Below, piece by piece: positions 131-17,004 of a stretch of 21,531 bases of DNA. Below the pieces are notes generated by a model. That model was given only the letters and a program-made list of their open reading frames with translations, did not search any database and was not told the DNA's origin. The DNA is from an uncultured archaeon (lineage in GTDB: Archaea > Asgardarchaeota > Thorarchaeia > Thorarchaeales > Thorarchaeaceae). A program made the translations under genes and the position numbers. Numbering within the stretch: the first letter of the stretch is position 1; every line of letters begins with the position of its first letter. The stretch covers positions 1-21,531 of the forward strand of contig CAZPWM010000050.1 of the NCBI GenBank assembly GCA_964590575.1. Reading direction: 5' to 3'.

Positions 131-190
131 TACAATGTTCGAAATGTGTATAACCCTCTAATGAGAAGGTCGCACTGGAGTTGTTTCTTT

Positions 191-640
191 TTGACTGAAG
201 AACAGGATGAGGACAGAATCAGACAAATTGCTATGGAACTTGATAATGCTATAGAGTCAAAGGATATAGATCAGATAGTTTCATTCTTTACTGATGACAC
301 TGAGATAGAACTGATGGGGATAAAGCTCTTAGGAAAGGATGGTGCTAGAAGATGGTTAGATTGGTTATTTGGTACTCTTGCTGAAGTCAAATTCAAACCA
401 ATCATCATTATGGTTGAAGGAAACATATTCTTTGAAGAGTTCATTCTTGTGGGAACCTTACCTAATGGGAAAATTGTTGAATCCAAACAATCTGAAGTTT
501 TAGTATATGAAAACTATAAGATTAAGAATCTACGTGTTTATTTTGATAGACTTGATTTCGCAGATATTGTAGCAGAAGACTTCATCTCTAGAAAGATTGT
601 CAAAACTCTGATTTCACGCTCTCTAAAGGGACTTGTGTGA
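191..640 (+). CDS. SnoaL-like / NTF2-fold protein
   Basis: AIESKDIDQIVSFFTDD ... GKDGARRW ... KIKNLRVYFD is a typical SnoaL pattern. The track starts at 146; the TTG at 191 follows a GGAG and is the more likely start. Confidence 0.8.
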   Translation: MTEEQDEDRIRQIAMELDNAIESKDIDQIVSFFTDDTEIELMGIKLLGKDGARRWLDWLFGTLAEVKFKPIIIMVEGNIFFEEFILVGTLPNGKIVESKQSEVLVYENYKIKNLRVYFDRLDFADIVAEDFISRKIVKTLISRSLKGLV

Positions 641-659: not shown

Positions 660-1028
660 TCACACTAGTTCCTCAGCATCTGGTTGCCACTCTGGGTATA
701 CGATGCACAAAAATTCTAGATTATCTTCTCCAATATTTTCTATGTACTGAACACCTTGAGGAGGGATATAGATAGTATCCCCAGAACCTACACTCTCTTC
801 TTCGTCATCGATATGCATCAGGCCGTTTCCCTTTAATATATAATACACCTCTGAAGCGGTTTTGAATCGATGAGGAAGTGATTTTTTCTTTGGTGGGAGG
901 GTTGCATGTGCAAGACTATACCCGAGATGAAGTGGGATTTTATCATGCTTGGGATTCAGCATCTCTCGTATTATTGTATCATCGAGTGCCACAATTTCTT
1001 TGAGTCCCTTCATTTTTTTCAATATCAT
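660..1028 (-). CDS. Cupin-domain protein (Cupin_2)
   Basis: Cupin motifs PHRFKTASEVYYILKGNG and GDTIYIPPQGVQYIENIG. Confidence 0.9.
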   Translation of the reverse strand: MILKKMKGLKEIVALDDTIIREMLNPKHDKIPLHLGYSLAHATLPPKKKSLPHRFKTASEVYYILKGNGLMHIDDEEESVGSGDTIYIPPQGVQYIENIGEDNLEFLCIVYPEWQPDAEELV

Positions 1029-1049: not shown

Positions 1050-2249
1050 TTAGAAATCTGGAGGTTGCTTGTTATACCACTTTGGAATCTTCTCCATAGC
1101 TGGTTCATACCCACTAAGTACATGACGACCAAGAATGAGCCTTTGAACTTCGCTAGTTCCTTCATATATTTGGTAAAGCTTGGCATCTCTGAACAACTTT
1201 TCAAGTGGATACTGGTCGATGTAACCATATCCTCCGTGAATTTGGAGGGCTTCGCTAGCTGTTTCCATTGCTACATCCGTAGCGAATGCTTTCGCCACAC
1301 TTGCAGGTATAGTAGCATCTCCAACATTATCAGTGGTCCAAGCAGCCTTCAGATACAGTGCTCTTGAGGCTTCAATCTTCATGAACATTTCAGCCAATTT
1401 GAACTGAATTACCTCAAATTCCCGTAATTTTTGAGTGAAAACCTCTCGCTTATTGACATAGTCTCGGGCATACTCCATCGCTGCACGTGCGAGTCCTGTG
1501 GCAAATGCTGCAATTGATGGACGAGTCATGGCGAAAGTCTTCATAGCTATAGCAAAGCCTTTCCCTTCACCGCCCAAGATGTTCTCTTCAGGAACTTTGG
1601 CATCTCGAAATACTACTGAGGACGTTGTGGAAGCTCTGTGTCCCATCTTTTCCACAGGGCGGCCTGTTTTAACTCCAGGAGTGTCAGCATCCACAATGAA
1701 GGCGCAAAGTGTTTTGTGTCTCTTACTTGGATCAAGAGTAGCAAAAACTGTGAAGTAATCAGCATGGGGTGCATTTGTGATCCAAAACTTTGACCCATTT
1801 AGCACATAATGGTTTCCTTCCTTCTTTACTAGTGTCTGGATTCCAGCGACATCTGAACCCATACCTGGTTCTGAGCATGCAAAACTGACAAATTTGAGGT
1901 CTTCAGTGAGTGGACGCAGATACTTCTCTTTCTGTTCATCAGTTCCAGCGATAAGGATGGGCTCAGCACCAAGAGAGTTCACATAGATGCTGGTGGTCAT
2001 TCCTGCGCATCCTGCAGCCATCTCTTCTACTGTGATACACTGTTCAATTGAACCTAGGCCCTGGCCTCCAAACTCCTTCGGGATTGAGAGGTTCATGAGT
2101 CCTTCTTCCCAGCACTTCTGTATTATCGGACGTGGAAATTCTCCGGTCTTATCATAATAGTGTGCATATGGAATCATATACTCCTGTGCGAATCTTCTCG
2201 CTTTGTTCTGTAGCTCTTGTTGTTCATCTGTTAACCTGAAATCAACCAT
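1050..2249 (-). CDS. Acyl-CoA dehydrogenase
   Basis: FACSEPGMGSD, LNGSKFWITN, KMGHRAS, QIHGGYGY and IYEGTSEVQRL (catalytic Glu); 399 aa. Confidence 0.97.
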   Translation of the reverse strand: MVDFRLTDEQQELQNKARRFAQEYMIPYAHYYDKTGEFPRPIIQKCWEEGLMNLSIPKEFGGQGLGSIEQCITVEEMAAGCAGMTTSIYVNSLGAEPILIAGTDEQKEKYLRPLTEDLKFVSFACSEPGMGSDVAGIQTLVKKEGNHYVLNGSKFWITNAPHADYFTVFATLDPSKRHKTLCAFIVDADTPGVKTGRPVEKMGHRASTTSSVVFRDAKVPEENILGGEGKGFAIAMKTFAMTRPSIAAFATGLARAAMEYARDYVNKREVFTQKLREFEVIQFKLAEMFMKIEASRALYLKAAWTTDNVGDATIPASVAKAFATDVAMETASEALQIHGGYGYIDQYPLEKLFRDAKLYQIYEGTSEVQRLILGRHVLSGYEPAMEKIPKWYNKQPPDF

Positions 2250-2341: not shown

Positions 2342-4606
2342 CTAGGAAGTAGATGTGATATGTCTCACAACTTCTGGTAGGTTCCATTTCAACTCCAGTT
2401 CTAATGCTCCGCTTTCAGGACCAGGACATCGCCGGACACAAGTACGGCACGCAACACAAAGCCAAAGGTCCACCTCGACAGAGCCGAATCCTGGAGCTTC
2501 CTTTTCAAGCGAGATGTCCTTTGAAGGCTTGACCGTAGCAAGATTCTGAACTGTCTTGTAGAAAAGCGACCGACTGGATGGCAATTGTGAGAGAGCTTCT
2601 TCCGAGATTTCAAAGAATTTCGGTAACTCTATGCGTGGTTTCAATTCAATTGCGTTCTCTGGACATGCAATCTCACATGACTTGCAACCAAGACACTTTG
2701 ATTGCTCCCACTCAATTGTACCAAATCCTAGCAGAGGCGCGTAGCCCATTTGATTTCTGTATTCATCAAGAACTGATGGTATATCCACATCTACTAGGTC
2801 TTCAAGAGTGACTTTGGGTCTTGTGCTTGGAATCTTTGCACGAGTCCGATAAGCAAGCAGAACAGCAGAACGTATTGAATCCTCCACTTCCTTCAAGGTC
2901 GTTTCATCAATCACAGCACCACTCACACACACTGTTGCAAGCTTATCTCGAGCCTTTGAAAAGACTTCCAATGAGTTTGCTAGTCTGCCAATATCGGGTG
3001 CCTTCAGCTCACTCAATATTCTCTCAAGCTCTGCTTTGGCTTCGGAGAGTTGAAGAGCGATGTTAGTTGTTGTCTGTATAATAATCTCAGCTTCGGAGGG
3101 TGTCCTTGGAACATCATAAAGAAGGTACCCATGACTCTCGCCAGCTATCGTAAGAAGTTCATCACGTTTCATTCTCAGCAGATGGCTAAGAATTCTGTCC
3201 CGGGGTATGTTTGTTCTCTCAGCAAGATCATGCGCGGTTAGGGCGCCCAGCTCTCTAATGAGAATCAAGATTGTGCCACGTTCGAGTTCATTATCAAGAT
3301 AGGTATCCATCATTATCTGATAGACTTCAGGGTCTAACTTCTCTCCATAGACATTGGTTCCAGAAACAAGAGTGGGACCCTTTTCCAATGTGATTTTGAG
3401 ACGAAAGCGTGCGAACGCTTCAAGTCCTGCGGAAACGAGAAGTTTGAGATTTTCAGCATCATCAGAGGTTTGAGAAGTCAAGAGTGCTTCGGTGGCATTA
3501 TCAACTGTTTCTCTTAGTTTGTTCATTGGTTCTGAAAGACCAGTTTCATCATAAGCCCCCAGAATTTTCAAGCGCTCGAGTAGTGACTGGAGATTCACCA
3601 TGGATTCGTTTGCAGTTTCTGTAATATTATCGTCCAGTGACTTGATTATTCCTCGAACCTGTTGTACGATTATTTTCAGAACCAGTGTTGAATTTGGTAT
3701 TTCTGTGAGGACCTTCGAGAAAACAGGAGCATCACCATCAAGTCCTACCATCTCAATTTCGCCTCTCTGTATCATAGTCACAAGAGCGTTCTGTATGGCT
3801 TGAGATGAGGTTTGCATGAGTTCTCCTATCTGTACAACTGTTTTGGAACCCATCTTTCCAAGTATGAACATAATCACTCCACGATTGGCTTCAGTGAGCA
3901 TATTGTCTAAGACGAGCTTGTGGAAGCGTGCGTCATCAATTCGACCTTCTCGCTTTCCTCGTTTCACTTGAGCTGCAGCTCTCATCCCTGGACCGTACCT
4001 AGTTTTCGCCCCAATTTTTTGTAGCTCATCTAAAGCTGTTTCAGGATCTGTTTCAGCCTTTGTTTTAATCAGATTGAGGGTTTCGACCAAGGACACTAGT
4101 TCAGCCTGTGCAGATTCTGCTTCAGCTTCAGAGGCTTTCTCTAATTCATCTGTGATTGACTCAATTTCAGATACTAAATCAGATATTGTAGAAAGTGTAG
4201 CGGGTATGTTAATATCCACACTTGTTTCAGAGGTTTCCTCAACCTTCGTCATGCGACCAAGTGCGTCAACAAGCAGTTTGTTCAGTCCCTTCAACGATTC
4301 AGACTCAGTTGTGGATAATACCTTTTCAAGGTTAGAAATTGACTCTTTGAGAATGCCTCTATCACTAATCTCAGAAACTATTTTGCTTTTCTCAACTGTT
4401 TCTAAGAATTTCGTAAAATAAGAGTCAGGAAATGCAAGAATTGCATCAGTCAGAGGTGCTAGTTCGATTTTAAGCTTATCAAGCTCCTCCTTGACCCTGC
4501 TAAGTGGAATTGCAGACTCTTCTTTGAGACCTCCAATAGCTAATATCATGTCTAGCATACGTTGTCTCTTAGGTGCAATAGCCTTCTCAAGTTGTGATTG
4601 TTTCAT
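2342..4606 (-). CDS. Uncharacterised 754-aa protein: helical/coiled-coil N-terminus, two wHTH-like repeats, C-terminal 2x[4Fe-4S] ferredoxin-type domain
   Basis: CLGCKSCEIACP and CVACRTCVRRCP motifs; HTH-like LTAHDLAERTNIPRDRILSHLLRM and KTVVQIGELMQTSSQAIQNALVTM; start overlaps the upstream stop (ATGA 4603-4606). Confidence 0.75.
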   Translation of the reverse strand: MKQSQLEKAIAPKRQRMLDMILAIGGLKEESAIPLSRVKEELDKLKIELAPLTDAILAFPDSYFTKFLETVEKSKIVSEISDRGILKESISNLEKVLSTTESESLKGLNKLLVDALGRMTKVEETSETSVDINIPATLSTISDLVSEIESITDELEKASEAEAESAQAELVSLVETLNLIKTKAETDPETALDELQKIGAKTRYGPGMRAAAQVKRGKREGRIDDARFHKLVLDNMLTEANRGVIMFILGKMGSKTVVQIGELMQTSSQAIQNALVTMIQRGEIEMVGLDGDAPVFSKVLTEIPNSTLVLKIIVQQVRGIIKSLDDNITETANESMVNLQSLLERLKILGAYDETGLSEPMNKLRETVDNATEALLTSQTSDDAENLKLLVSAGLEAFARFRLKITLEKGPTLVSGTNVYGEKLDPEVYQIMMDTYLDNELERGTILILIRELGALTAHDLAERTNIPRDRILSHLLRMKRDELLTIAGESHGYLLYDVPRTPSEAEIIIQTTTNIALQLSEAKAELERILSELKAPDIGRLANSLEVFSKARDKLATVCVSGAVIDETTLKEVEDSIRSAVLLAYRTRAKIPSTRPKVTLEDLVDVDIPSVLDEYRNQMGYAPLLGFGTIEWEQSKCLGCKSCEIACPENAIELKPRIELPKFFEISEEALSQLPSSRSLFYKTVQNLATVKPSKDISLEKEAPGFGSVEVDLWLCVACRTCVRRCPGPESGALELELKWNLPEVVRHITSTS

Positions 4607-6774
4607 TCAGTCACCTCCATCCACTTCCCAGCAGTTCCATCATGGACAGGGGTGGGGCCTAGCTTTTTGGCACGTTTCACCATTTCATTGATTGCATTGG
4701 TGAAGCGCTCTGGCTCTGCACTGAACATTCTGAACATGTCAACTCGTTCACCTTTCCAACCAATAGCATTCAATATGTCGCGAGCAACGTCTACTTGCAC
4801 CTGAGCAATCTCATTACCAGTCCCTCCGATGTGGCATCGATCTTTCTCACAAGCTGCAATCATAACAGTGCTAGCACCATTTTCGAGAGCCTTGAAAATG
4901 TCTATGATACTTACACGACCAGCACAAGGTACAGGAATCAGACGTGTGCTTGCGGGATATTCCATCTTTCTTGTCCCAACAATATCAATTGTGGATACTG
5001 AACATTCCTCACAGTAGAAACAGAGTGTGATTGGATAGTCTGGACCTGCACCCTCAAGCACGGCTTCAATTTCGGACCATAGCTGATCGTTAGATAGGAA
5101 GTTGAGCTGAGTTGCACCTGATGGACATAAACTCTGACAGACTCCACAGGAATGACAATTCAGTATGTCAATCGAGGCCTTGAAGAGGATCTTTTGCTCT
5201 TCATCGGCTTCCTCCGCTTCTGTCTGTTCAATCATAAGTGGAACTCCACGAGGACACTGTTGTGCACAGAGACTGCATCCAACACAGTCATCCACATTAA
5301 GTACGGCTCCACGTGCGACGGATTCGATTTTTCCACCTTGTAATTCATTATGGATTATGATTGCACCAGCTTGAGCGTCAGTCACAGCTTCAAATACAAA
5401 CTGGGGACGTGTGACTCCTCCAACTGCAACTACACCACGCCGACGGGTTTCGTTCCTTCTCAGTTTACCATAAAGTTCCTTTACATGTCCATCATCTTCA
5501 ATTGCATAGCCCAAGGTTTCTGAAAGCTCGAAAGTTCCATCTGCGGGCAGAATTGCGGAGGACAGAACCAGTAGGTCTACTGGTGTTTCTAGATACTTGT
5601 CAAGGAGAGAGTCATAGACCCGTACATACGTAGTGCCATCTTGTTCCCAAGTCATACTTACGCGACCACGGATGTAGTCAATCCCCTTCTCACGTGACTC
5701 CTTGTATATCATTTCGTTCTCGAATGGAACTCGTATATCCATGTAGACAATCCTTACGTTTGCATCAGGATTTTTCTTGAGGATTTCTAGAGAGTTGTCA
5801 ATTGCGAATGTGCAACACAGTTTGCTGCAGTCCTTCTTGTAGTCTTCAGACCTGCTGCCAACGCATTGGACCATTACAACTTCCTTGACTGGTTTTCCAT
5901 CAGATGGCCGACTAAGTTCACCCTCAGATAGCATGCATGAGAGCTCGAACTGTGTAATGACATCTGGATTCTTACCATAACGGTATTCGTCCATAGCTAT
6001 AGGTTTGAACTCCTTGAATCCAGTTGCTAGGACTATGGCGGAAGTTTGTAAGGTCTTCTCCTCTTCATAATCATCCTCTGACAAATAATGAACTGTGAAA
6101 TTCCCCATCTCTCCAGTGACGTACTTGATTTGGGTCTTGGTCATTATTGTGATTTTGTTTTCGTTCTGGAGTGCTTCCAATCGACCGCTAAGTATCTCCT
6201 TACCAGATTTACCAGTGGGAGCAACAACAGGGAGGCTTTTGACGTGTCCTCCTAGTTCATCTGTGAGTTCCAATAGAGCGACCTCGTAACCGAGGTTTGA
6301 AAGGCTGAGTGCGGACTCAATTCCAGCAATTCCTCCACCAATGACAGTTACGTGTGTGGCAACCTCCTTTTGTTCTAGTGACCGCTTCATTGATTTGGCG
6401 GACCTTGCTAGTGTGCCACGAATCATATCCACAGATTTCTTGCTTGCTTCATCAACATCATTGTGGACCCATGCTGAGTGTTCTCTGAGGTTCACATATT
6501 GGATTTGAGTGCTGTCAATACCATGTGAGTCAAGATACTGATCAATTCGTGGTTGGATTTTCTGACTGGAACATGCAGCTATCACAAGATGTCCATCACT
6601 GGTCTTGAGAAGCTCTGCAATCTTCTCCAGACCTCCTTCCTGACAGACAAGATCATGAACAGTCACGGAGGATGTCAGGTCCATTTTCTTGACCTGCGTT
6701 TCGAGGAAGTCAAATTCTAACTGAAGTTGTTTACCACAGGTGCAGATGAGTACTGCTGATTTTTTGTCATCCAT
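4603..6774 (-). CDS. hdrA: HdrA-like flavoprotein fused to MvhD (QmoB-like architecture)
   Basis: N-terminal CTCG/C/AACS domain with NLREHSAWVH; FAD motif VIGGGIAG; QCVGSR..CSKLCC; two CxxCxxCxxxCP motifs; C-terminal MvhD with CFYCEEC, VPCAGRV and CEKDRCH. Confidence 0.92.
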   Translation of the reverse strand: MDDKKSAVLICTCGKQLQLEFDFLETQVKKMDLTSSVTVHDLVCQEGGLEKIAELLKTSDGHLVIAACSSQKIQPRIDQYLDSHGIDSTQIQYVNLREHSAWVHNDVDEASKKSVDMIRGTLARSAKSMKRSLEQKEVATHVTVIGGGIAGIESALSLSNLGYEVALLELTDELGGHVKSLPVVAPTGKSGKEILSGRLEALQNENKITIMTKTQIKYVTGEMGNFTVHYLSEDDYEEEKTLQTSAIVLATGFKEFKPIAMDEYRYGKNPDVITQFELSCMLSEGELSRPSDGKPVKEVVMVQCVGSRSEDYKKDCSKLCCTFAIDNSLEILKKNPDANVRIVYMDIRVPFENEMIYKESREKGIDYIRGRVSMTWEQDGTTYVRVYDSLLDKYLETPVDLLVLSSAILPADGTFELSETLGYAIEDDGHVKELYGKLRRNETRRRGVVAVGGVTRPQFVFEAVTDAQAGAIIIHNELQGGKIESVARGAVLNVDDCVGCSLCAQQCPRGVPLMIEQTEAEEADEEQKILFKASIDILNCHSCGVCQSLCPSGATQLNFLSNDQLWSEIEAVLEGAGPDYPITLCFYCEECSVSTIDIVGTRKMEYPASTRLIPVPCAGRVSIIDIFKALENGASTVMIAACEKDRCHIGGTGNEIAQVQVDVARDILNAIGWKGERVDMFRMFSAEPERFTNAINEMVKRAKKLGPTPVHDGTAGKWMEVTE

Positions 6775-6783: not shown

Positions 6784-8034
6784 TCACTTCCTCCTCTGGA
6801 GTATCTTAGACACGACTGCACGAGCTTGGGTCACACTCTCGGGAACTTCAGCAGGACCCAAGGCGGCGCCACATGCATAGACATGGTCACCCACCACGAC
6901 TTCATTCTCTGAAGCTGGATCTGCTATTCCCACAAATCCACTTGCAGACTTTAATCCAAGTGATTCAATGAGTTTGTCAGTACCCTTTGTTGGTTCCAAT
7001 GCTGATGAAAGCACAAAAAGGTCCACTGTAAACTTGAGATATTTATTCAGAAGAGAGTCATAGACTGTTATGTCTAAGGTATCATCATTACGAGGTTGAA
7101 CGAGAGAAACTCTGCCTCGGACAAACTCTACACCGGAGTTTCGGGAGTCACGATAGTATCGTTCATACCTATCATATGTGCGGATATCCATGTATACGAC
7201 ACTTACTGAAACATCATCCCGTTCCTGTCTTAGAATATTGGCATGTTTGAGGGCGAAGATACAACATATCTTAGAGCAATAAGGGTAGTAGTTCTCATCT
7301 CTACTCCCAACACACTGTACCATCATCACTCGCTTTGCGGGCTTTCCATCGGATGGTTTCACAGGTACCCCACCTGATTCTCCATTGGGGTCAATTATCT
7401 TGGCTAGTTCAAGCTGGGTTATGATGTTGGGGTGTTTTCCGTAGTTATACTCATCCACGTTGACTGGTTGCATCTCGTGATAACCCGTAGCAATGACAAT
7501 ATCTGAAACTTGGACTGTTTCTTCAGTGGGTTGTGCACCCAGATTGATTGCCTTAGTTGGGCACTCCTCTTCGGCCTGTTTAGCACCAGCATCTTCTTTT
7601 GTTGGGTCGAAGATGACAGCTTGAGGTTGACACTGAGGGGACAATAAACGGAATGCCTCTGACTTTTCTAGACAAAGACCGCACATCGTACATTTCTTTG
7701 GATTGACATACTCAGGGCCCACCTTGAGCTTGGCAGAGAATTGACCTGGAGTGCCGGAGATTTCGTCTACTTCACTATGCATCCTCAATGTTATGTTAGG
7801 TTGGTCAGTGAGCGCGCTCCTATAGAAGCATTTGCGGATTCCAGGACGCGAACGATTCCCCTCAAAACAGTAGAAACAATCATCGGTTGGGAATGCCTTG
7901 TAAAGGTCTAGAGCATTGCCCCCTACGGTTTCTTGACGTTCAACAAGGACCGTCTTGATTCCAGAGTCTGCAAGCTCAACAGCAGCTGTCATACCTGCAA
8001 CACCAGCTCCGATGATAAGGACCGGATTGGACAC
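6784..8034 (-). CDS. hdrA: Short HdrA-like flavoprotein (QmoA-like architecture)
   Basis: GTG start after GAGGTGA RBS; IIGAGVAG; KAFPTDDCFYC; inserted CTMCGLC..CP; QCVGSRD..YCSKICC. Lacks the N-terminal Cys domain and the C-terminal ferredoxin. Confidence 0.9.
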   Translation of the reverse strand: MSNPVLIIGAGVAGMTAAVELADSGIKTVLVERQETVGGNALDLYKAFPTDDCFYCFEGNRSRPGIRKCFYRSALTDQPNITLRMHSEVDEISGTPGQFSAKLKVGPEYVNPKKCTMCGLCLEKSEAFRLLSPQCQPQAVIFDPTKEDAGAKQAEEECPTKAINLGAQPTEETVQVSDIVIATGYHEMQPVNVDEYNYGKHPNIITQLELAKIIDPNGESGGVPVKPSDGKPAKRVMMVQCVGSRDENYYPYCSKICCIFALKHANILRQERDDVSVSVVYMDIRTYDRYERYYRDSRNSGVEFVRGRVSLVQPRNDDTLDITVYDSLLNKYLKFTVDLFVLSSALEPTKGTDKLIESLGLKSASGFVGIADPASENEVVVGDHVYACGAALGPAEVPESVTQARAVVSKILQRRK

Positions 8035-8045: not shown

Positions 8046-8912
8046 TCACCCGGTCAAATGATCAAGAATGGGAGCTGCTGGGACCCTATTCATGCTTAGG
8101 CCTACTTCTTCTTCATCCATTCCCATGGCCAGCCCAAGAATTTGTGGATACAAGAGTACTGGTAAGTTGTATTCCTCACCGTATGATTCTTTCAGGCCTA
8201 GTTGTTGTAAATCAAGCTGGTTACCACAAGCAGGACAGACTACAGTAATAAATTCCGCTCCAGATTCTTTAATTGACTTCAACTTATCACGGGCCAATCT
8301 AATAGCAAGATTTTCATCGACGGGTAGAACAGTTGCACCGCAGCATTGTTTCCATATCGGGTACTCAACAACTGAAGCTCCAGTAACCCGAATCAGCTCG
8401 TCTAGATATTCTGGTTTGAATTCAGTCACGTCAGCGGGACGGAGAACATGACAACCATAGTGGATTGCAATTCCTACCCCATCTAATGGTTTTGTGACTT
8501 TCTTTTTGATTTCTTCAATTCCAATGTCAGTATATAGAGCTTCTACAAAATGACGGGGAGTTATTGTGCCTTTGAACTCCAAGCTCTCCTTCTTTAAGAT
8601 AGCATTGACCTTCTTCCTGTAGTCGGTATTAAGTTTGAGAAAGTGGTATACATCTTTGAGAGATCCGAAGCACCCATTACATGGAGTGACGATATCATGT
8701 CCATTCTTCTCTGCAATAGCCAAGGTTCTCGCATTTACAGTAAGCCATCCCATGTAGTCAATAGCACGAAGATTAGGACTGCCACAACAGGCGACACCCT
8801 CCATATACTCCAATCGCATATCATAAGCTTCTGCGACCTTTATCATTGCTGCTTCATAATTCGGATAGTTTGCAGGCACACTGCAACCTATGTATAAGTT
8901 GTACACTGGCAC
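8046..8912 (-). CDS. hdrB: Heterodisulfide reductase subunit B
   Basis: Two CCG domains (GC..CCG..CNGC; HYGCH..CCG..CPAC). The track starts at 8933; the GTG at 8912 follows GGTGGTGA and the hdrC stop. Confidence 0.95.
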   Translation of the reverse strand: MPVYNLYIGCSVPANYPNYEAAMIKVAEAYDMRLEYMEGVACCGSPNLRAIDYMGWLTVNARTLAIAEKNGHDIVTPCNGCFGSLKDVYHFLKLNTDYRKKVNAILKKESLEFKGTITPRHFVEALYTDIGIEEIKKKVTKPLDGVGIAIHYGCHVLRPADVTEFKPEYLDELIRVTGASVVEYPIWKQCCGATVLPVDENLAIRLARDKLKSIKESGAEFITVVCPACGNQLDLQQLGLKESYGEEYNLPVLLYPQILGLAMGMDEEEVGLSMNRVPAAPILDHLTG

Positions 8913-8913
8913 C

Positions 8914-9456
8914 TCACTCACCACCAGCCACAAGCTTGCCGGTCCGGGTTTCCTTCAGTATGTCTTTCACTTCATCAACTGATAGACCAGGTACCTCTGG
9001 CTCAAGACCCATATCTTCGCGCTCCCAATCTGCTGTCACTGTATAGAGTTGACCTTTCTCAAGCAATTCTTTACCCAAACCAACAACATTTGATGGGACC
9101 TTACCCTCTTCAGCAGCTAGATTCTTACATTCAAAGAAAATGTCAGTGACTCGAACTTTCTGAGGGCAACGTTCTTGACACTGGAAACATGTCAGACAAA
9201 GCCAAATCTCATCAGATGAGAGAACCTCATCACGCATTCCTAAAAGTATCATCCGAATCAACTGGTGTGGTTTATACGTCCAGACATTCGCAATGGGACA
9301 TGCTGCTGTACAAGTTGAACAGGCAAAACAAGCAGAGAGTTCTTCACCGTTCGGCATACTGTGAATCTCTTCACGAAACTTCTTATCAAGTTTTGACATT
9401 TCAATAGGATCAATCAGTGTAGCTGGGGGTCCAGTCGATTCTTCAGTTTCAGCCAT
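8914..9456 (-). CDS. hdrC: Heterodisulfide reductase subunit C
   Basis: CFACSTCTAACP and IWLCLTCFQCQERCP, PHQLIRMILLG; adjacent to hdrB. Confidence 0.95.
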   Translation of the reverse strand: MAETEESTGPPATLIDPIEMSKLDKKFREEIHSMPNGEELSACFACSTCTAACPIANVWTYKPHQLIRMILLGMRDEVLSSDEIWLCLTCFQCQERCPQKVRVTDIFFECKNLAAEEGKVPSNVVGLGKELLEKGQLYTVTADWEREDMGLEPEVPGLSVDEVKDILKETRTGKLVAGGE

Positions 9457-9480: not shown

Positions 9481-9531
9481 GGCTTATCGCCAGTTGGCTG
9501 AGCGATTTGGTAGCCCATATTAAAAGTTTGC
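9481..9531 (-). promoter_or_regulatory. Putative hdr operon promoter (BRE-TATA) with downstream inverted repeat
   Basis: Minus strand reads GCAAAC-TTTTAATA (TATA 9518-9525); imperfect inverted repeat at 9481-9515. Confidence 0.5.
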
Positions 9532-9789: not shown

Positions 9790-10077
9790 TTAGGGGGCTT
9801 GGATCAGACTTCGTATTGTTTCAACCTTAGTTCTCAGATGTAAGTATGGATCTATGGAAGTCTGACGTATCTCTGTACTTGTTCTGATTAAGTATGCCTT
9901 AAGATCCATCACATTGCCTTTCATTTTCGTGAGGGTTGGACTGCTCTCATCTAGCAATCGTAGAGTGTTAGTGAGTGCAACCTGAAATTTGTCATGCTCT
10001 AGACCAATTCTATTACGAGTTTCATCAATGAAATCAATAAGAGACGTGATTTCAGAAACTATAACATCTTTCTTCAT
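9790..10077 (-). CDS. Hypothetical helical protein, coupled to GINS
   Basis: 95 aa, amphipathic helices; ATGA overlap with the GINS stop (10074-10077). Confidence 0.75.
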   Translation of the reverse strand: MKKDVIVSEITSLIDFIDETRNRIGLEHDKFQVALTNTLRLLDESSPTLTKMKGNVMDLKAYLIRTSTEIRQTSIDPYLHLRTKVETIRSLIQAP

Positions 10078-10721
10078 TCAGAGAATCCCTCCTCTGCAAC
10101 GATGCGGATGACTGTACCATCACGTAACCATGTCTTCGCATTAGCTGTAGGAATCATAGCAATATCCTCTTTCTTGAACGGACCATAAGTCTTCTCATCA
10201 AGACCTAAGAAAGCATCACTGATCGAGCGTAGGAATCGCACAGTTACGTACTCGACAGTTTCAGAAGCAGATGGAGTCTTGAATTTTTTCCCATGTTCAC
10301 TAGTCTTCTTTTTCTTCTTTGGTTTAGAGCCAGCTAAGGAATCCTTGACAAACTCGGTATGACCATCAAAAGCACGTTGAACTCTGTTGTATAGTTCTTC
10401 CTCTGCGAGTATCATATCGCCTCTTGGTCGGTGCCCTGAGAGCGCAGCCTTCAATATCTTCTGTTTTCGGAGATTCAATAAATCTTCAATCATGAATTCA
10501 AGGTTGAGAGCTTCTTGTGTCAGTATATCAGCTTGAATCCGCTTTTCGGCATCAGTAGATGCCAAAGATAGACGCACACTGGAAAGGTAATCGATCATTT
10601 TGCTTAGTTGAAGGTCGCCCAAATTTTGAAGACTCTCATTCTCTATTTCAGTTTCCCAAGTAGATTTGATATCGTTATATCCCAAATCACTCAATGATAG
10701 CAACTCCCTTGCATAATACAA
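10074..10721 (-). CDS. gins15: GINS subunit, Gins15/Gins51 type
   Basis: Helical A-domain (LLNLRKQKILKAA, EEELY) then B-domain VRFLRSISDAFLGLDEKTYGPFKKEDIAMIPTANA; directly downstream of priS. The true start may be the TTG at 10694. Confidence 0.88.
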   Translation of the reverse strand: MYYARELLSLSDLGYNDIKSTWETEIENESLQNLGDLQLSKMIDYLSSVRLSLASTDAEKRIQADILTQEALNLEFMIEDLLNLRKQKILKAALSGHRPRGDMILAEEELYNRVQRAFDGHTEFVKDSLAGSKPKKKKKTSEHGKKFKTPSASETVEYVTVRFLRSISDAFLGLDEKTYGPFKKEDIAMIPTANAKTWLRDGTVIRIVAEEGFSE

Positions 10722-12093
10722 AAGCCGCAGCAGCTGTTGGCATCTCTACAGACTCCCCATGATAAGGCCCATATGTTTCATCTCCGATTCTAAAGCGAGG
10801 AACTCCAGGAGATTTGTATAGGAACTTGACCTTCATTTGTCCATCATTGAAAGCAATGGCATCTCGAAAAGGATCAAAGTCATCAAGCTCATCTCTGGAC
10901 AGCTGGTTGACTAAGAATCCAGTCTTGCCATTCAAGCTTCCGATTAGACGAATGACTCTGTGAATGTCGTGGGTCACAGGGCGGTCTATCTCACCACCGT
11001 AAAACTCTGCAGCTTTCTCTGCGATCTCCTGCCATGACTTCAGTCCAATGTCCTTAGCCTCTTTGTTCAAAATGGGAGGGTTCCGGAGAAGTCCTTCTAT
11101 TGCTGCTACCTTTCCCTTTCTTAGCGGTTTGACCCATCTCTCTGTACCATCGTATGAATCTATATTCTGTACAAACTCGATGATTGCATCAGCCATTTTA
11201 CCAGACCAGCCTGGAAAGACACGGTCTGGAACTCGATTCACATTACCCTGAGTGACTATTACTTTCTCAGTGTTGAGACCAAGACCCATGATATAGTGCA
11301 CAATCTGAATGCGACCACTTGAGTCAAGTGAGTAGACTCGTGGGTCTCGAACACGAATATGATACCCTCTATGACCACTATAGTTGAGCTGAATAGATTC
11401 AGGATCAAACCCAAAATCATTCATAATGAATTCATCATAGAGCTTCACAGTATGCTTCTTTGCTTCAGCTAAACATTTCTCACATACCCATTTCCTTGTA
11501 CTGAAGCTCGTTCCACTACAATCTGGACAGTTTTCGGGGGGGAGACCTACTCCTGTTTTATGACATCCCTCAACATTACAACGCCATGCATCATGCTCCT
11601 TAGCACAAGGTAAATCCAAATGATCAGCATCAATATCAAAAACAAGTTCAGCCCCGAACCATTCCTTCTCATCCATATGGCGAGCGACTGGGATTTTGTA
11701 AAATGCAGCTGAGTGATAGATACTGTGCGGTGCAATAGATACTAAATCTTGTACCAGTTCGTCACGATTCAGGTATCCAACATGTCTCCTCCAAGTTGTC
11801 GTCTGGATATCACTAGATCCACATTTTGGACACTCTTTGAGGTTTGAGAAGGATTTTCCCGATTGGCCACATCCGGTTGTTGTTTCACGACCAGATTCGT
11901 CACGGCCCTTTCTCTTAGGACAATACCAATTATAGTCCCAGCTTTGGATACCGAATTCACGTGTGTGAACCTTTTCAGGAATGTCAATGGAATCGGGATT
12001 TGATTTGTAAAATTCATGGAACATAAATCGCAGTTTCAAAACCGTGCTTGTGAAACCTTGATTCTGATTCGACATATAGTGGAACTCCATCAA
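10687..12093 (-). CDS. priS: DNA primase small (catalytic) subunit with extra Zn-ribbon
   Basis: REFG, ELVFDIDAD (DxD), YSGHRGYHIRV, IDRPVTHDIHRVIRLIGSLNGKTG. Confidence 0.96.
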   Translation of the reverse strand: MMEFHYMSNQNQGFTSTVLKLRFMFHEFYKSNPDSIDIPEKVHTREFGIQSWDYNWYCPKRKGRDESGRETTTGCGQSGKSFSNLKECPKCGSSDIQTTTWRRHVGYLNRDELVQDLVSIAPHSIYHSAAFYKIPVARHMDEKEWFGAELVFDIDADHLDLPCAKEHDAWRCNVEGCHKTGVGLPPENCPDCSGTSFSTRKWVCEKCLAEAKKHTVKLYDEFIMNDFGFDPESIQLNYSGHRGYHIRVRDPRVYSLDSSGRIQIVHYIMGLGLNTEKVIVTQGNVNRVPDRVFPGWSGKMADAIIEFVQNIDSYDGTERWVKPLRKGKVAAIEGLLRNPPILNKEAKDIGLKSWQEIAEKAAEFYGGEIDRPVTHDIHRVIRLIGSLNGKTGFLVNQLSRDELDDFDPFRDAIAFNDGQMKVKFLYKSPGVPRFRIGDETYGPYHGESVEMPTAAAAFVLCKGVAIIE

Positions 12094-12127
12094 TTGGCAC
12101 CGATGTGTTCGGGACCTCTTGTCTTTT

Positions 12128-12883
12128 TTACCTACGTTCTACTCGTGGTGCAAGAACGAAGCTTATACTTCCAGCTTCTGCTATTCCGAATTCTAACATC
12201 ATTGGTTTATTGGAAGTGAATTGAAGCATTAGGCTGTCACTGGCAATCGCTTTTGATATTTCTGTAAGATAATTCAGGGCGTACATCGATGCCGATTTGC
12301 CTGATACTTCCAGTTGAAAAAGTGCTGGCGCGTCACCTTTGGTAGTCAGCGCAACATTGGCTTCACCAGTATCACCCTCACCAGCGAAAGCGAGCTGTCC
12401 TTGCTCTGCACTGATCTTTACATGACTAGAAACAACTCCAATATCTTTGATTGCCTGTTTGAAAGTATCAGATAGTAGTTCAGCCTTTACATCGAATTGA
12501 ATTCCGGGTTTCTTTGTCTGATCATCTGGCGGTGTTAATAGTTGCAGTTTGAACACTCGATTTGCCTGTCCAATCATTCGAATCTCAAAACGGTTTTCAG
12601 ACTCATCAAGATTGAACTCGAGATGCTCATCCCCTGTCATCCGTTTGCTCACCTTAGCGAGCTCATCGATACCCAAACAGATGTCATGTTCACCCTTGCA
12701 TGAATACTCCTGGAAAATTCCAGAAGGAAGGGTCAAATCAACCATTGCAGCCTTTGATGAGTCGAGCTGACGTAGCGATATTCCAGATTCAGATACCCGG
12801 AAATGTGCTTCTGTGAGCAGTGTTGCAAGAGCGTCTACAATCTGCTTCCATGTCTTGGTACTATCAAGAGTCGCGTGAAACAT
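12128..12883 (-). CDS. pcn: PCNA sliding clamp, paralogue B
   Basis: 251 aa; LDSSKAAMVDL, FQEYSC, MYALNYL, C-terminal FVLAPR. Confidence 0.97.
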   Translation of the reverse strand: MFHATLDSTKTWKQIVDALATLLTEAHFRVSESGISLRQLDSSKAAMVDLTLPSGIFQEYSCKGEHDICLGIDELAKVSKRMTGDEHLEFNLDESENRFEIRMIGQANRVFKLQLLTPPDDQTKKPGIQFDVKAELLSDTFKQAIKDIGVVSSHVKISAEQGQLAFAGEGDTGEANVALTTKGDAPALFQLEVSGKSASMYALNYLTEISKAIASDSLMLQFTSNKPMMLEFGIAEAGSISFVLAPRVERR

Positions 12884-13071
12884 ACCGTTATCTCCAACCG
12901 TCTATTGAAGCGCAAACTGAGTATTATTAGTCTGAACAACGGATTATCATTCAAATATTCAGTTCTTGCTCTTTGTTTGTGAACTAGATTCTCAAAATGA
13001 ATTTCACATTTAAAGAGTTACTCTCGGTTGATTTTGTATTCTTTTTATAGGTAAGATGGATGTGCTTGTTG

Positions 13072-13824
13072 TTATCTTCTCTCTATTCTTGGAGCCAGAA
13101 GGAAACTGATTTTTCCACCTTCCGCAATTGGAAACTCAAGCATCATAGGTTTATTCCCGGTCATTCTGAGTGTCAGGATATCACTTGAGATTGCCTTGGC
13201 AATTTCTGTAAGATAGCTAAGGGCATACATTGTGACAACGTCCTGTTTCACCTCTAAAACATGAAGAAGAGAGTCGTCTCCAAGTTTCAAAGAAACCTCG
13301 GCTTCACCAACATCACCCTCTCCTCCAAAACTTAGCGATTCCTTTGTAGCTTTAATTTTCATATGATTTGAAACAACGCCAATATCCTTTACGACTTGTT
13401 TGAATGAGTCAGAAAACATTTCAGCCCTAATTTCAAATGTTGGACTTATCTTCTGGGTCCTTTCTTCTGGCGGAGTAAGTAAATGAATTTTGAATGTCCG
13501 TTCAGCTTGACCTATCATCTTAATTTCAAAACGATTTTGAGATTTGTCAAGATCAAATTCTAATTTATCATCACCAGCCATACGTTTACTCACTTTTCCG
13601 AGCTCGTCTAATCCTAGGCATATCTCATGTTCGCCTTTGCAGTTGTATTCTTGGAAAATATCTGAAGGAAGAAAGAGGTCGACCATAGCTGCTCTGGATG
13701 AGTCATATTGAATCAGTGAGATGCCATCCTTTGTGATTAGGAAATGCGCTTCTGTGAGCAGTGTTGCCAGAGCATCAACTATTTGTTTCCATGTCTTGCT
13801 ATTGTCAAGAGTTGCATGAAACAT
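13072..13824 (-). CDS. pcn: PCNA sliding clamp, paralogue A
   Basis: 250 aa; DSSRAAMVDL, FQEYNC, MYALSYL, C-terminal FLLAPR. Confidence 0.97.
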   Translation of the reverse strand: MFHATLDNSKTWKQIVDALATLLTEAHFLITKDGISLIQYDSSRAAMVDLFLPSDIFQEYNCKGEHEICLGLDELGKVSKRMAGDDKLEFDLDKSQNRFEIKMIGQAERTFKIHLLTPPEERTQKISPTFEIRAEMFSDSFKQVVKDIGVVSNHMKIKATKESLSFGGEGDVGEAEVSLKLGDDSLLHVLEVKQDVVTMYALSYLTEIAKAISSDILTLRMTGNKPMMLEFPIAEGGKISFLLAPRIERR

Positions 13825-13837
13825 GATAATTCATTCC

Positions 13838-14212
13838 TCACTCACTCATTGTTTTAGTTACTTTTCCCTCCATATCTTGGACTTCCTTAAAGAGTGCAAC
13901 ATCCAAAGTATCGATATCATGAGCAATTGACGCATTCAATCTTAGCTCTTTTCCATCATCGACAATCTTCTCAGTGACTTCCCCGATGAATAGGTATCGT
14001 TTTTTCAGCTCGAGTGAAGCTTCAACAATGACTTGAATCTTACCTGCTTTTTTAACATCATCATCGTATATGTCTTGGATAACCGCAAGTCCTGGACTTG
14101 CGTCTACAACAATTCCCATTATTCTAACAGGACCACTTGTATCTGCAGAGAGGTTTCGTATTGTGGTGAGTTTTGATGGTTTTCGAGGGGTGAATCTTTT
14201 CTCTTCGGTCAA
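13838..14212 (-). CDS. Small OB-fold protein, RPA3/RPA14-like
   Basis: TTG start after GGTG; VRIMGIVVD..IQD..IGEV..ASIAHDIDTLDVALFKEV resembles archaeal RPA14 with a C-terminal trimerisation helix. Confidence 0.7.
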   Translation of the reverse strand: MTEEKRFTPRKPSKLTTIRNLSADTSGPVRIMGIVVDASPGLAVIQDIYDDDVKKAGKIQVIVEASLELKKRYLFIGEVTEKIVDDGKELRLNASIAHDIDTLDVALFKEVQDMEGKVTKTMSE

Positions 14213-14250
14213 TTTGTTACACCATTCAGTCTATAGGAGGAATTTAACAA

Positions 14251-14289
14251 TAGGTCACCTAGGGAGCAGTATCTAGACGGCTATAAATT
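14251..14289 (-). promoter_or_regulatory. Putative internal promoter for rpa3-pcna
   Basis: TTTATA at 14282-14287 (minus); short palindrome TAGGT-C-ACCTA at 14251-14261 near the expected transcription start. Confidence 0.4.
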
Positions 14290-14298
14290 TGTCAGTGC

Positions 14299-14622
14299 CT
14301 AGTACCTACGCCAAGTATGCTTACAAGATGTACATCTATAGAACTCTGTTGCACCTTCATCCCCTCTTCTTGTCTGGACTGTCCAATAATAGGCATCATT
14401 GTTACCGCATTTGGGGCATGTTTCCTTAGTTATGGGCATAGGAATGGAATCATCCTCTACAACGATTATCTTATCACGTGGTGTTTTCTCTATGTTTTGA
14501 GATACTGTCAATCTTCCTTTGATTTCTTTAGTGTGCCCACAGCTTCGACATTTCAGGACTCTAGTACCATCATCTTCTGTGGTTGGAACCATCATTGCGC
14601 TACATTTGTCACAGAATTCCAT
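14299..14622 (-). CDS. tfs: Transcription factor S (TFS/RpoM family)
   Basis: MEFCDKC..CRSC and CPKC..QTRRGDEGATEFYRCTSC with the acidic DE hairpin. Start reassigned from 14694 to the ATG at 14622. Confidence 0.95.
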   Translation of the reverse strand: MEFCDKCSAMMVPTTEDDGTRVLKCRSCGHTKEIKGRLTVSQNIEKTPRDKIIVVEDDSIPMPITKETCPKCGNNDAYYWTVQTRRGDEGATEFYRCTSCKHTWRRY

Positions 14623-14690
14623 GCGATGTTCACTTATCCGCTGCAGCGTTAAAATTTCAATTAAGCATTGCGACAACGAACATTTCTGAA

Positions 14691-15101
14691 TCAAGGCAAA
14701 GAACCAATATGTTGTTCTAGAAAGTGTTGGAATGCTTGTGCTGCGATTTCACCTTCTTTTTTCCTGTTGGTCTTAGTGTCTATGTGAAGTGTTTGAGCGA
14801 GAGCATCGACAGCGCTTTGGACTGTGATTTTACCTGTCATCCACAAATAAGCTATAATTGCTTCATAGGCATCTGCAGCCTTTCCAACATCTGTTCTACG
14901 TGATATATGTCTGTAGACCTCTGTTGCACGAATTGCTTGAGCTAGCACACTGTCTCGAACTTTTTCACCAGTGGCATAACCAAGCACTCTAGATTTAGTC
15001 AAAGAATAACAGAGATTGATGATGCCATCACCCACTTTTGCGAGCCCTTTATCATTCATGATTTCTTCAACGGATTCATGCTGAACAAAGGCTTCCCACA
15101 T
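14691..15101 (-). CDS. Archaeal RNase III-like protein
   Basis: DKGLAKVGDGIINLCYSL and ADAYEAIIAYLW match the archaeal RNase III-like family. The ATG at 15101 follows GGTGG; the track start at 15203 overlaps rpoL. Confidence 0.8.
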   Translation of the reverse strand: MWEAFVQHESVEEIMNDKGLAKVGDGIINLCYSLTKSRVLGYATGEKVRDSVLAQAIRATEVYRHISRRTDVGKAADAYEAIIAYLWMTGKITVQSAVDALAQTLHIDTKTNRKKEGEIAAQAFQHFLEQHIGSLP

Positions 15102-15126
15102 ATGAAAGGCCACCGTTTGATAGTGT

Positions 15127-15417
15127 TCAATCAACACTATGATCTGATACTGCTTGTTTGAATTTCTTACGGAACTCTTCAGTTCTAGCAAGCATCTTCT
15201 CAAGAGCTTCTCTTAGAACAACATTAGACTGACGTTTCTTTGTCTTTAGTGTTAGAATTGGGCTAGCTAGTAGTGGGTGTTCAATGTTGTATCCAGCAAA
15301 CTCCACTGAAGGCTCTTCCAAGAGTGTCTTACGAAGCAAGTTTGGGAATGAATGTCCTTCCCCACCAATCTCAAATTTAATTTCAAATTTAGTATGTTCA
15401 ATAGTTCTTGGCTTCAT
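15127..15417 (-). CDS. rpoL: RNA polymerase subunit Rpo11 (L)
   Basis: GEGHSFPNLLRKTL..VEFAGYNIEHPL. Confidence 0.96.
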   Translation of the reverse strand: MKPRTIEHTKFEIKFEIGGEGHSFPNLLRKTLLEEPSVEFAGYNIEHPLLASPILTLKTKKRQSNVVLREALEKMLARTEEFRKKFKQAVSDHSVD

Positions 15418-15419
15418 GT

Positions 15420-16166
15420 TTAGCGTCTCCTATCGTTTCTACGGCGATCATCGCCTCTTCCACGGGGACCATCGAAGCGTCTACCACTGCGGTCTCCACG
15501 GTCATCACGGTCGTACTCTCGGCGTTCATATTGTCGTCGGCGGGGTGCCAAATCGGGTCTTGCTTCAAGACCAAATCTCAGTCCATAGTCATTAGCGACT
15601 TCGCGAGTTTCTCGATTCTCACATCGAAGACAGAACATGTTGTTGTGTGTAGTGAGCGTCAGGGGATTGCCACATTTTGTACATACCCCAAACACAACGC
15701 CAAGTTCAGGACCCACAAGGGTTAGTTTTACAGGAAAATCATGTGTGTTAAGAGCTGCGGCACGAACGATATCATTTTGTTTGAGTACATCTTGCATACT
15801 TTTCACATATCTCCGTGTTACATTACTTATGTGCAATTCACCTACAAGACCACTGTAATAATCCTCTTCGTTAATCCTCGCAATTCGAACTTCAGCACGC
15901 TGATCAAATACAATAGTAACTTTTCCCATGAGGATATCACCTTGTACCGGAAGGGCTAGTTTCATTTCGCCATCAGGACTGATCACTCTGATGCTGCGTT
16001 CTTTTAGGTTCATATCAACTTGCCCAGGAGAAGCGGCATAAACAATACCATCCTTCTCATACGTACCAAAACTTGGCATCAACTCTTCGATGACACACAG
16101 TTGATCTCCAGGCACTACGATATCGCCGCTCTTTACATCTGCCATTCTATTCACGCTCTTCGACAC
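15420..16166 (-). CDS. csl4: Exosome RNA-binding cap subunit Csl4 with Arg/Asp/Gly-rich tail
   Basis: VVPGDQL, S1 domain (GELHISNV, DIVRA), LGVVFGVCTKC..CLRCENRETREVA; upstream of rpoL. Likely start is the ATG at 16145. Confidence 0.95.
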   Translation of the reverse strand: MSKSVNRMADVKSGDIVVPGDQLCVIEELMPSFGTYEKDGIVYAASPGQVDMNLKERSIRVISPDGEMKLALPVQGDILMGKVTIVFDQRAEVRIARINEEDYYSGLVGELHISNVTRRYVKSMQDVLKQNDIVRAAALNTHDFPVKLTLVGPELGVVFGVCTKCGNPLTLTTHNNMFCLRCENRETREVANDYGLRFGLEARPDLAPRRRQYERREYDRDDRGDRSGRRFDGPRGRGDDRRRNDRRR

Positions 16167-16954: not shown

Positions 16955-17004
16955 TTCTAGGTAGGTGTGATTAACGTCAGGTTCGGATTGGAGTAGATGT
17001 TTCG

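Follow-up and report, generated by a model that had tools for sequence, protein, structure and literature searches.

A winged-helix ferredoxin protein as a probable adaptor subunit of Hdr-like complexes in Thorarchaeota-type and Helarchaeota-type archaea

A 754-amino-acid (aa) protein encoded at positions 2342-4606 on the minus strand of a 21,531-nucleotide (nt) stretch from an uncultured archaeon of the Thorarchaeaceae (contig CAZPWM010000050.1) is most likely a previously undescribed adaptor or electron-wire subunit of a heterodisulfide reductase (Hdr)-like complex; Hdr-linked adaptors as such are already known. The whole stretch is called the window below and the protein X, while Thor stands for the window's own family and Hel for the Helarchaeota-type. 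X consists of a helical N-terminal domain, two winged helix-turn-helix (wHTH) modules and a split 2x[4Fe-4S] ferredoxin domain. With a probability of roughly two in three, we propose that it sits at the MvhD docking site of a tandem-HdrA/HdrBC complex and that its wHTHs act as protein docking pieces for an electron donor or acceptor. The anatomy, homologies, gene linkage and domain swaps of X are established here. Flavin electron bifurcation by HdrA lies at the heart of anaerobic energy metabolism, and Asgard archaea contain many hdr clusters in want of assigned electron partners.

The gene for X (754 codons plus stop) is the last of five consecutive hdr-linked genes on the minus strand. Its start codon (ATG, 4606-4604) and the stop codon (TGA) of the 723-aa hdrA-mvhD open reading frame (ORF; 4603-6774) overlap as ATGA, as the initial annotation of this DNA had stated. 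The 723-aa product is QmoB-like and contains an N-terminal Cys domain, one ferredoxin domain and a C-terminal MvhD/FlpD domain (FlpD at aa 584-706, E 1.3e-32; HdrA2 model, E 7.9e-136). It is preceded by a short hdrA (hdrAs; 6784-8034) for a QmoA-like protein of 416 aa, which lacks the N-terminal and ferredoxin domains and aligns only with the FAD/thioredoxin-reductase part of HdrA models (HdrA2 model, E 1.6e-87, model positions 140-556). Further upstream lie hdrB (8046-8933), with two CCG domains (CCG, E 2.1e-30, two stretches; TIGR03288, E 1.6e-83), and hdrC (8914-9456; TIGR03290, E 1.8e-30). Pfam and NCBIfam thereby confirmed HdrC, HdrB, the short HdrA and HdrA-MvhD, and with them the earlier assignment of the neighbours to an Hdr operon. 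To our knowledge, Qmo complexes have no X-like subunit. A plus-strand reading of 2342-4606 was rejected, as its translation is full of stops.

To analyze the distribution of X, we surveyed 400 genomes of the phylum; an earlier search of 201 genomes had given the same picture. Full-length X was found in 83 of 85 Thor genomes, the two misses being 60-62% complete, and in all seven genomes of three Helarchaeota-type families, whose proteins are 22-28% identical to that of the window. No match at E<=1e-15 was obtained in the largest other families (0/135, 0/31, 0/22 and 0/19 genomes), while the ferredoxin part alone was matched in four further families and the wHTH part alone in one. The X family appears to be a lineage-restricted (Thorarchaeota-type, Helarchaeota-type) input or adaptor subunit that occupies the MvhD docking site.

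The gene order around X differs between the two groups. All 20 loci examined, from 20 Thor genomes, have the order hdrC-hdrB-hdrAs-hdrA/mvhD-X, and all seven Hel loci have the order hdrAs-hdrA/mvhD-X-hdrC-hdrB. Despite this rearrangement, X stands directly behind hdrA-mvhD within an hdr cluster in 27 of 27 loci, and the linkage of homologues to hdr genes that the initial annotation had anticipated is therefore borne out. The start/stop overlap is also present in a Hel locus (L043). Adjacency within the Thor family proves little, because the whole region is syntenic, the PCNA, primase and GINS genes included; the comparison of Thor with Hel isolates a five-gene core of hdrC, hdrB, hdrAs, hdrA-mvhD and X. 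One of the 20 Thor loci has about 2.7 kb inserted between hdrA-mvhD and X (L027 5370-8086). Further tandem or fused HdrA genes lie just upstream of the X cluster in L043 (1-6229) and other Hel loci, and include an 817-aa HdrA-MvhD, a double HdrA of 1016 aa and a separate MvhD. On the opposite strand further downstream, the Hel loci carry genes for two 377-aa ferredoxin-domain proteins and a 4-hydroxybutyryl-CoA-dehydratase/HpaB-like gene.

An AlphaFold2 model of X was built from 34 sequences, with a mean predicted local distance difference test score (pLDDT) of 78.8 and a predicted template modelling score (pTM) of 0.40. In the model, a helical N-domain (helices at 12-124) comes first. Long helices then lead into the first wHTH (225-298) and a helical hairpin, and another set of helices into the second wHTH (426-498) and its hairpin; the linker after that (597-624) is disordered and joins the ferredoxin domain (625-754). 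The N-terminal helical domain (aa 1-124; window 4235-4606) has nearly invariant residues K13 and R14. Module 1 (aa ~130-345; 3572-4219) comprises long helices, a TRYG loop, wHTH1 and a helical hairpin. Within it, wHTH1 (aa 225-298; 3713-3934) shows three helices and a beta-hairpin in the model. Module 2 (aa ~346-600; 2807-3571) comprises a helix pair with invariant residues E396, E408 and K409, an NVYGEK loop (418-423), wHTH2 (aa 426-498; 3113-3331) and a helical hairpin. The wing of wHTH2 (Y494..Y497-D498) is its most conserved part.

The two modules are homologous. With 34 homologues, hhalign aligned residues ~150-345 with ~347-555 (98.3%, E 1.3e-14, 185 columns), and pairwise blastp of X 151-350 against 351-560 gave 22% identity over 124 columns (E 3e-6). 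The initial annotation had placed an internal repeat at aa ~221-297 and 421-498. Its positions and the homology stand; the alignment extends further, however, and the repeated unit is therefore about 200 residues long (helices, wHTH and helical hairpin) and not about 77. That both repeats fold as wHTHs, as also predicted there, is supported by Pfam, by the model and by structure alignment. wHTH2 (436-501) aligns with TrmBL2 (5bpd_B; Z 9.1, root-mean-square deviation (rmsd) 2.2 Å over 75 residues), PH1932 (2cwe; Z 9.1, rmsd 1.7 Å over 63) and Zalpha (1qbj; Z 8.8, rmsd 1.2 Å over 62), and wHTH1 (235-299) with AdcR (5jls; Z 8.0, rmsd 1.6 Å over 62) and CadC (1u2w; Z 7.6).

No characterised family in Pfam, NCBIfam or the PDB sequences spans the full length of X. 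A PDB sequence search with X matched the ferredoxin region only (best 7qv7_B, E 4.2e-5), with nothing credible for aa 1-620, and an ESM Atlas search with aa 1-600 returned a hypothetical protein as its top hit (score 0.75, below the useful level). HTH_9, the RPC82/RPC62-type domain, scored 18.4 bits in X against a cut-off of 23.4. The best whole-chain match in Foldseek was 7d58_O (RPC62/RPC82; E 6.7e-4, TM 0.08/0.12), and cullins were also matched, with TM values of at most 0.17. Judged from the predicted structure, the resemblance to RPC82/RPC62 is architectural only.

Both parts of X occur elsewhere in association with Hdr or MvhD. By hhalign, module 2 (X 386-498) and the extension at the C-terminus of long MvhD proteins are homologous (98.3%, E 1.7e-14, 110 columns), and the likeness of the NVYGE..wHTH unit to such extensions, which the initial annotation had pointed out, is supported. 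The long MvhD proteins (~256-340 aa) consist of FlpD/MvhD followed by a C-terminal helix pair, the NVYGEK loop and a wHTH. We found 427 proteins with MvhD plus this extension at E<=1e-5; the named ones are annotated as hydrogenase iron-sulfur subunits, and Bathyarchaeota and Thermoplasmata are among the hosts. In other Asgard families, genes for long MvhD proteins lie inside hdr clusters (L081 8227-8997, L082 8032-8814), as does a 122-aa ORF for a stand-alone wHTH module. The split-ferredoxin unit is fused to MvhD in the protein P0155, and the window's own genome encodes a 304-aa protein with two such units fused to MvhD. A stand-alone split ferredoxin of ~165 aa is found beside hdrAs/hdrA-mvhD in five of five loci of other Asgard families, directly downstream in three and divergent at ~1.6 kb in two. 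A 449-aa protein (P0142) represents a one-module version of X. X is thus assembled from two modules that both occur elsewhere with Hdr or MvhD, and one of the two has been duplicated. Pfam found no FlpD match in X, the FlpD domain of the operon belonging to the upstream HdrA-MvhD; X is therefore not an MvhD and only a relative of its extension. A PDB sequence search with a long MvhD (P0169) returned six MvhD chains that cover the FlpD part only, none of which spans the wHTH extension. A search of shorter proteins with X 380-505, for which the word index was too insensitive, returned 12 fragments of the same Thor protein and no MvhD fusions.

The C-terminal ferredoxin domain (aa 625-754; 2345-2734) scores 38.2 bits with Fer4_7 (PF12838), above the cut-off of 27. 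As noted in the initial annotation, it contains two CxxCxxCxxxCP motifs, each preceded by GFG and separated by a long insert. The eight cysteines of motif 1 (C638-x2-C-x2-C-x3-C-P649, with C638, C641, C644 and C648; 2660-2695) and motif 2 (C717-x2-C-x2-C-x3-C-P728, with C717, C720, C723 and C727; 2423-2458) are invariant in 34 of 34 aligned homologues. The insert of ~55 residues (aa ~655-706; 2489-2644) carries a conserved helix and strand, with conserved residues L675, P676, A690, P694, I698 and G706. The domain resembles PsaC (9m4f_C; Z 9.0, rmsd 3.4 Å over 74 residues), FwdF (5t5m_F; Z 9.0, 32% identity over 71 residues) and the ferredoxin domain of HdrA (8rvu_A; Z 8.8).

To investigate the contact with HdrA-MvhD, we modelled X aa 380-754 (34-row alignment) together with HdrA-MvhD aa 480-722 (25-row alignment). 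The complex reached an ipSAE of 0.85 (0.83, 0.87 and 0.85 in the individual runs), while the best of three controls scored 0.00. As a benchmark, 116 of 157 solved complexes attain that mark, as do 2 of 215 mismatched pairs; with the custom alignments used here, these counts are approximate. The runs agreed in at least 81% of contacts (157-162 contacts each), and the partner pLDDT was at least 56. On the side of X, the predicted interface spans 639-732, that is both cluster motifs (639-647 in motif 1) and above all residues 675-707 of the insert, a predicted MvhD docking element with interface residues at 659-707. On the partner side, it involves the MvhD domain (622-631, 656-673, 709-719) and the HdrA ferredoxin domain (496-506, 525-531, 549-553). 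The residue pairs with the least error join X 681-692 to MvhD 623-631 and 667-673. The predicted interface overlaps residues that are conserved between Thor and Hel at 20-28% identity and is consistent with the ferredoxin-MvhD fusions. Together, the modelling supports docking of the ferredoxin domain and its insert on HdrA-MvhD. Docking on MvhD had been suggested in the initial annotation through the wHTH unit; a contact with MvhD is indeed predicted, but through the ferredoxin domain and insert rather than a wHTH.

The window's form is one of three architectures of X found at the same locus: two wHTH modules, an NfnB-like domain instead of module 1, and an NfnB-like domain together with both wHTHs. 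A form of 972-998 aa is encoded in at least 7 of the 83 family genomes, five of them in the window's own genus; in it, a GltD/NfnB-like flavoprotein domain (Fer4_20 plus Pyr_redox_2; E 1.1e-16 and 4.1e-36) replaces aa ~120-416. The two-wHTH and the NfnB-replaced architectures both occur within the window's own genus. Forms of 972-980 aa stand at L038-L040. One genome encodes a form of at least 1109 aa (L103 3-3329), which ends at a contig edge; in this form the TR[YF]G loop runs directly into the inserted flavoprotein domain, with wHTH1, module 2 and the ferredoxin domain behind it. Counted together, at least eight relatives carry the flavoprotein domain. The N-terminal helical domain is retained in all three architectures, including the long forms P0123 and P0313. 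The inserted domain of long X is 51-53% identical to that of two giant HdrA-like proteins from the window's genome. Judging from these domain arrangements, an adaptor in which an NAD(P)H-flavoprotein domain can stand in for a wHTH module or join it would behave as an electron-input scaffold rather than a regulator.

The long MvhD adaptors offer a close precedent for X. According to a preprint, the wHTH of BamF, a long MvhD homologue in class II benzoyl-CoA reductase (BamBCDEFGHI) studied by cryo-electron microscopy, interfaces with BamI and helps to link an electron-input module to the HdrA-like core (bioRxiv 10.64898/2026.04.10.717634). More broadly, long MvhD proteins (FlpD plus wHTH, ~256-310 aa) carry an extension homologous to module 2, whereas X has no MvhD/FlpD domain and has the module split off, duplicated and fused to a ferredoxin.

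Based on these data, a model for the function of X can be proposed. The host would be a soluble Hdr-like complex of HdrC, HdrB and a heterodimer-type pair of HdrA proteins, the short QmoA-like one and the QmoB-like HdrA-MvhD. In it, X would take the position of Mvh hydrogenase, formate dehydrogenase or Elp in the methanogen complexes and pass electrons to or from the route through the MvhD [2Fe-2S] and HdrA ferredoxin clusters to the bifurcating FAD. The first ~620 residues, comprising the helical N-domain and the two duplicated helix-plus-wHTH modules, would serve as a non-catalytic scaffold. Both modules probably derive from the wHTH extension found in long MvhD adaptors, and their most likely task would be to dock the protein that actually donates or accepts the electrons. 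The contact with HdrA-MvhD comes from a predicted model; which way the electrons run, that the wHTHs serve for docking and which protein is the partner are inferences. In some Thor lineages the donor may be built in, in the form of the NAD(P)H:FAD domain that replaces or precedes module 1, which would make the Hdr complex NAD(P)H-linked; for the 754-aa form, the partner would have to come in trans. A stand-alone NfnB-like gene of the same genome was considered as such a partner and rejected, as it adjoins an NfnA-like gene and belongs to an ordinary NfnAB/SudAB pair. X thus gives a handle on what feeds or drains the Hdr complex, with NAD(P)H as a candidate in the long forms, and on the recruitment of wHTH domains as protein adaptors in bifurcating complexes.

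Several points weigh against the adaptor model. The 754-aa form has no catalytic site, and no partner could be pinpointed for it. The evidence for binding is the complex model and the gene context, and the success of the model may lean on solved Hdr complexes with ferredoxin-like subunits on MvhD/HdrA. In this model, aa 380-624 of X, wHTH2 included, make no confident contact, which says nothing on whether the region binds. BamF is likened to X by its published description and not by sequence comparison. The remaining points concern the wHTHs themselves: wHTH2 can be superposed with Z ~9 on proteins that do bind nucleic acids (TrmBL2, Zalpha, ArsR); its recognition helix has a charge of +3/+4 in all 24 Thor sequences; MarR_2 scores 28.3 bits for the whole protein (cut-off 27), matching at 247-286 with no single stretch passing; and 2 of 18 control wHTHs from the same genome are acidic (-3) as well.

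The wHTHs could instead make X a redox-sensing DNA binder, as the initial annotation had proposed: contact with Hdr would fix the oxidation state of the two [4Fe-4S] clusters, and this in turn would control DNA binding by the tandem wHTHs and so regulate hdr or neighbouring genes. The genuine wHTH folds, the MarR_2 score and the basic recognition helix of Thor wHTH2 favour this reading, as do the annotations of some JGI homologues, which add 'DNA-binding MarR/IscR/ArsR family regulator', and the imperfect palindromes upstream of hdrC and of the acyl-CoA dehydrogenase (ACAD) gene that follows X, which are short (10-15 nt, 73-90% complementary) and weak. We nevertheless regard it as quite improbable. 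In 73-residue windows, the net charge is -2 for wHTH1 (aa 236-308) and -4 for wHTH2 (aa 436-508), compared with a median of +3 (range -3 to +11) for 18 MarR_2-type wHTH segments of the same genome; charge alone does not settle the matter, because two of these controls are negative too. Both wing tips are acidic (GLDGDAP and AGESHG), and the whole of X has a charge of -28 and an isoelectric point of 4.95. The recognition helix (helix 3) of wHTH1 has a charge of 0, and that of wHTH2 varies from -2 to +4 in Hel forms, whereas the most conserved positions are the YxxYD of the wing and the helices preceding the wHTH. X therefore lacks the conserved basic recognition helix and wing of MarR/ArsR/TrmB-type regulators, and no MarR/ArsR-type dimerisation architecture was seen in it. 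Matches to the regulator families are mixed: MarR_2 passes its cut-off for the protein as a whole, X is absent from the 19 MarR_2 matches of its own genome at E<=0.001, and TrmB (448-488; E 5.5e-3, 17.0 bits against 25.6) and MarR (22.5 against 24.6) stay below their cut-offs. Moreover, module 1 can be dispensed with or swapped for a flavoprotein domain, the homologous module is fixed at the C-terminus of hundreds of MvhD proteins, the BamF wHTH is reported to contact a protein, and X is a 754-aa protein translationally coupled to an enzyme subunit. From its sequence features, DNA binding by X thus seems rather unlikely. A variant in which X is a stoichiometric Hdr subunit that doubles as a redox-gated DNA- or RNA-binding protein is kept alive by the genuine folds, the Zalpha/TrmBL2 superposition and the basic recognition helix of all Thor sequences; we give it a very slim chance, although it would tie the redox state of the Hdr complex directly to Asgard gene expression. 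X proteins, like the hundreds of long MvhD proteins, should accordingly not be annotated as transcription regulators.

Two other readings stay closer to electron transfer. As a special case of the adaptor model, the wHTHs might recruit the downstream ACAD and wire acyl-CoA/enoyl-CoA redox through the clusters of X into the bifurcating HdrA. The ACAD gene (1050-2249, minus strand; Pfam ACAD N, M and C domains) lies 92 nt downstream of X, and it follows X directly and in the same orientation in 19 of the 20 Thor loci, all three long-form loci included. The second hdr cluster of the genome ends with etfB/etfA, which makes a redox connection between Hdr and acyl-CoA plausible for this archaeon. 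Metatranscriptome contigs from two runs (151-281 nt, 90-100% alike) fall on parts of X, both hdrA genes, hdrB and ACAD; none bridges two genes and DNA carry-over may account for them, and they hint only weakly at expression of the cluster. We hold this coupling to be unlikely, since ACAD was found within ~10 kb of X in none of the seven Hel loci, one Thor locus (L036) lacks it, and the synteny of the whole Thor region makes adjacency weak evidence. Electrons from ACADs normally go to electron-transferring flavoprotein and not to ferredoxin domains, which also counts against it. An apparent X-ACAD fusion (L075, genome G389; an open frame of 1155-1161 aa) was rejected: the frame crosses a run of N in the intergenic region and is therefore an artefact. 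Alternatively, X might be a free-standing, large ferredoxin-like carrier that visits Hdr transiently, or a non-stoichiometric factor that aids assembly or oligomerisation through its long helices. The low pTM (0.40) of a model whose domains are well folded points to an extended and flexible chain, the best whole-chain likenesses in Foldseek are extended-winged-helix scaffolds (RPC62/RPC82, cullins), and in other Asgard families the ~165-aa ferredoxin suffices by itself. This is improbable in our view: the ATGA overlap, kept in a distant lineage, suggests co-translation with hdrA-mvhD at a fixed ratio, the predicted interface is large and confident, and the fusion of the ferredoxin unit to MvhD in paralogues argues for permanent contact.

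Other known systems close to X are the Hdr electron-input modules (MvhAG hydrogenase, FdhAB, Elp) and polyferredoxins (MvhB, FwdF/FmdF, VhuB), Fe-S proteins that wire partners to Hdr as proposed for X. From their docking site at MvhD/HdrA they send electrons towards the bifurcating FAD. FmdF (7bkb_K) has a split dicluster spaced like that of X. Polyferredoxins, however, have at least six tandem [4Fe-4S] motifs, while X has two clusters and no catalytic site, and its NCBIfam polyferredoxin scores are far below the cut-offs (FwdF, 24.9 against 375; VhuB, 21.7 against 600). Its ferredoxin domain agrees with Fer4_7 in motifs, score and fold but contains the ~55-residue insert, and the ~620-residue helical/wHTH scaffold has no counterpart in input modules or polyferredoxins. 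MarR/ArsR/TrmB-type regulators share the wHTH fold (Z 7.6-9.1) and weak Pfam matches with X, but differ in size and architecture and in the acidic surface and wings, unconserved recognition helix and missing dimer interface of X.

The short and long HdrA beside HdrC/HdrB resemble QmoABC and tandem-HdrA clusters (QmoA/QmoB; HdrA5/6- and 12/13-type of anaerobic methanotrophic archaea (ANME); hdrCB-qmoAB), the X locus being without apr/sat genes. According to one report, tandem HdrA genes of ANME have been proposed to form heterodimers, and HdrA9-11 of ANME-1 carry an NfnB-like insert (PMC9012536). The descriptions of QmoABC and tandem-HdrA clusters, in the portions available, mention no X-like subunit. 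HdrL and HdrA-NfnB fusions have the same Fer4_20+Pyr_redox_2 domain as the long forms of X (E 4e-36, 1e-16); there it is placed on HdrA and here on the adaptor subunit, and the 754-aa X has no such domain. No published description of the X family was found in the literature searched, which included passages of PMC6478937, PMC11237513 and PMC9012536, with subscription journals and supplements outside the search.

The same genome contains further hdr clusters. A second, larger one (L047, genome G000 contig C63, 751-11952) comprises hdrC-like, hdrB-like, short hdrA and hdrA-mvhD (654 aa) genes, the gene for the 304-aa ferredoxin-MvhD fusion (5498-6412), hdrA (679 aa), hdrC, hdrB, etfB, and etfA with an N-terminal ferredoxin. 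The two giant HdrA-like proteins of 1126 and 924 aa (L054 6808-10188 on contig C58; L055 7142-9916 on contig C32) contain the inserted GltD/NfnB-like domain, and each lies in a further hdrB/hdrC/mvhD cluster. With the cluster of the window, the genome thus has at least four hdr clusters.

In the window, ACAD is followed by a gene for a small cupin (660-1028, minus strand), which is syntenic in 13 of 20 family loci, and a gene for a SnoaL-like protein (146-640, plus strand). At the other end of the operon, an A/T-rich TATA-like element (~9515-9530, minus strand) is located ~60-70 nt upstream of the hdrC ATG, in the 333-nt gap between hdrC and a 95-aa ORF (orf95), and is likely to be the operon promoter. 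orf95 (9790-10077, minus strand) has no Pfam match, overlaps the GINS stop and was seen by tblastn between GINS and hdrC in 12 of 20 family loci. With it begins an island of replication and transcription genes that abuts the hdr operon (9790-19894) and encodes GINS51 (10074-10721), the primase PriS (10687-12093), two PCNA paralogues (12128-12883, 13072-13824), a TFS/RPB9-like zinc-ribbon protein (14299-14694), Orc1/Cdc6 (17005-18252) and the PolD small subunit DP1 (18272-19894). The Cdc6 gene may have an origin of replication close by.

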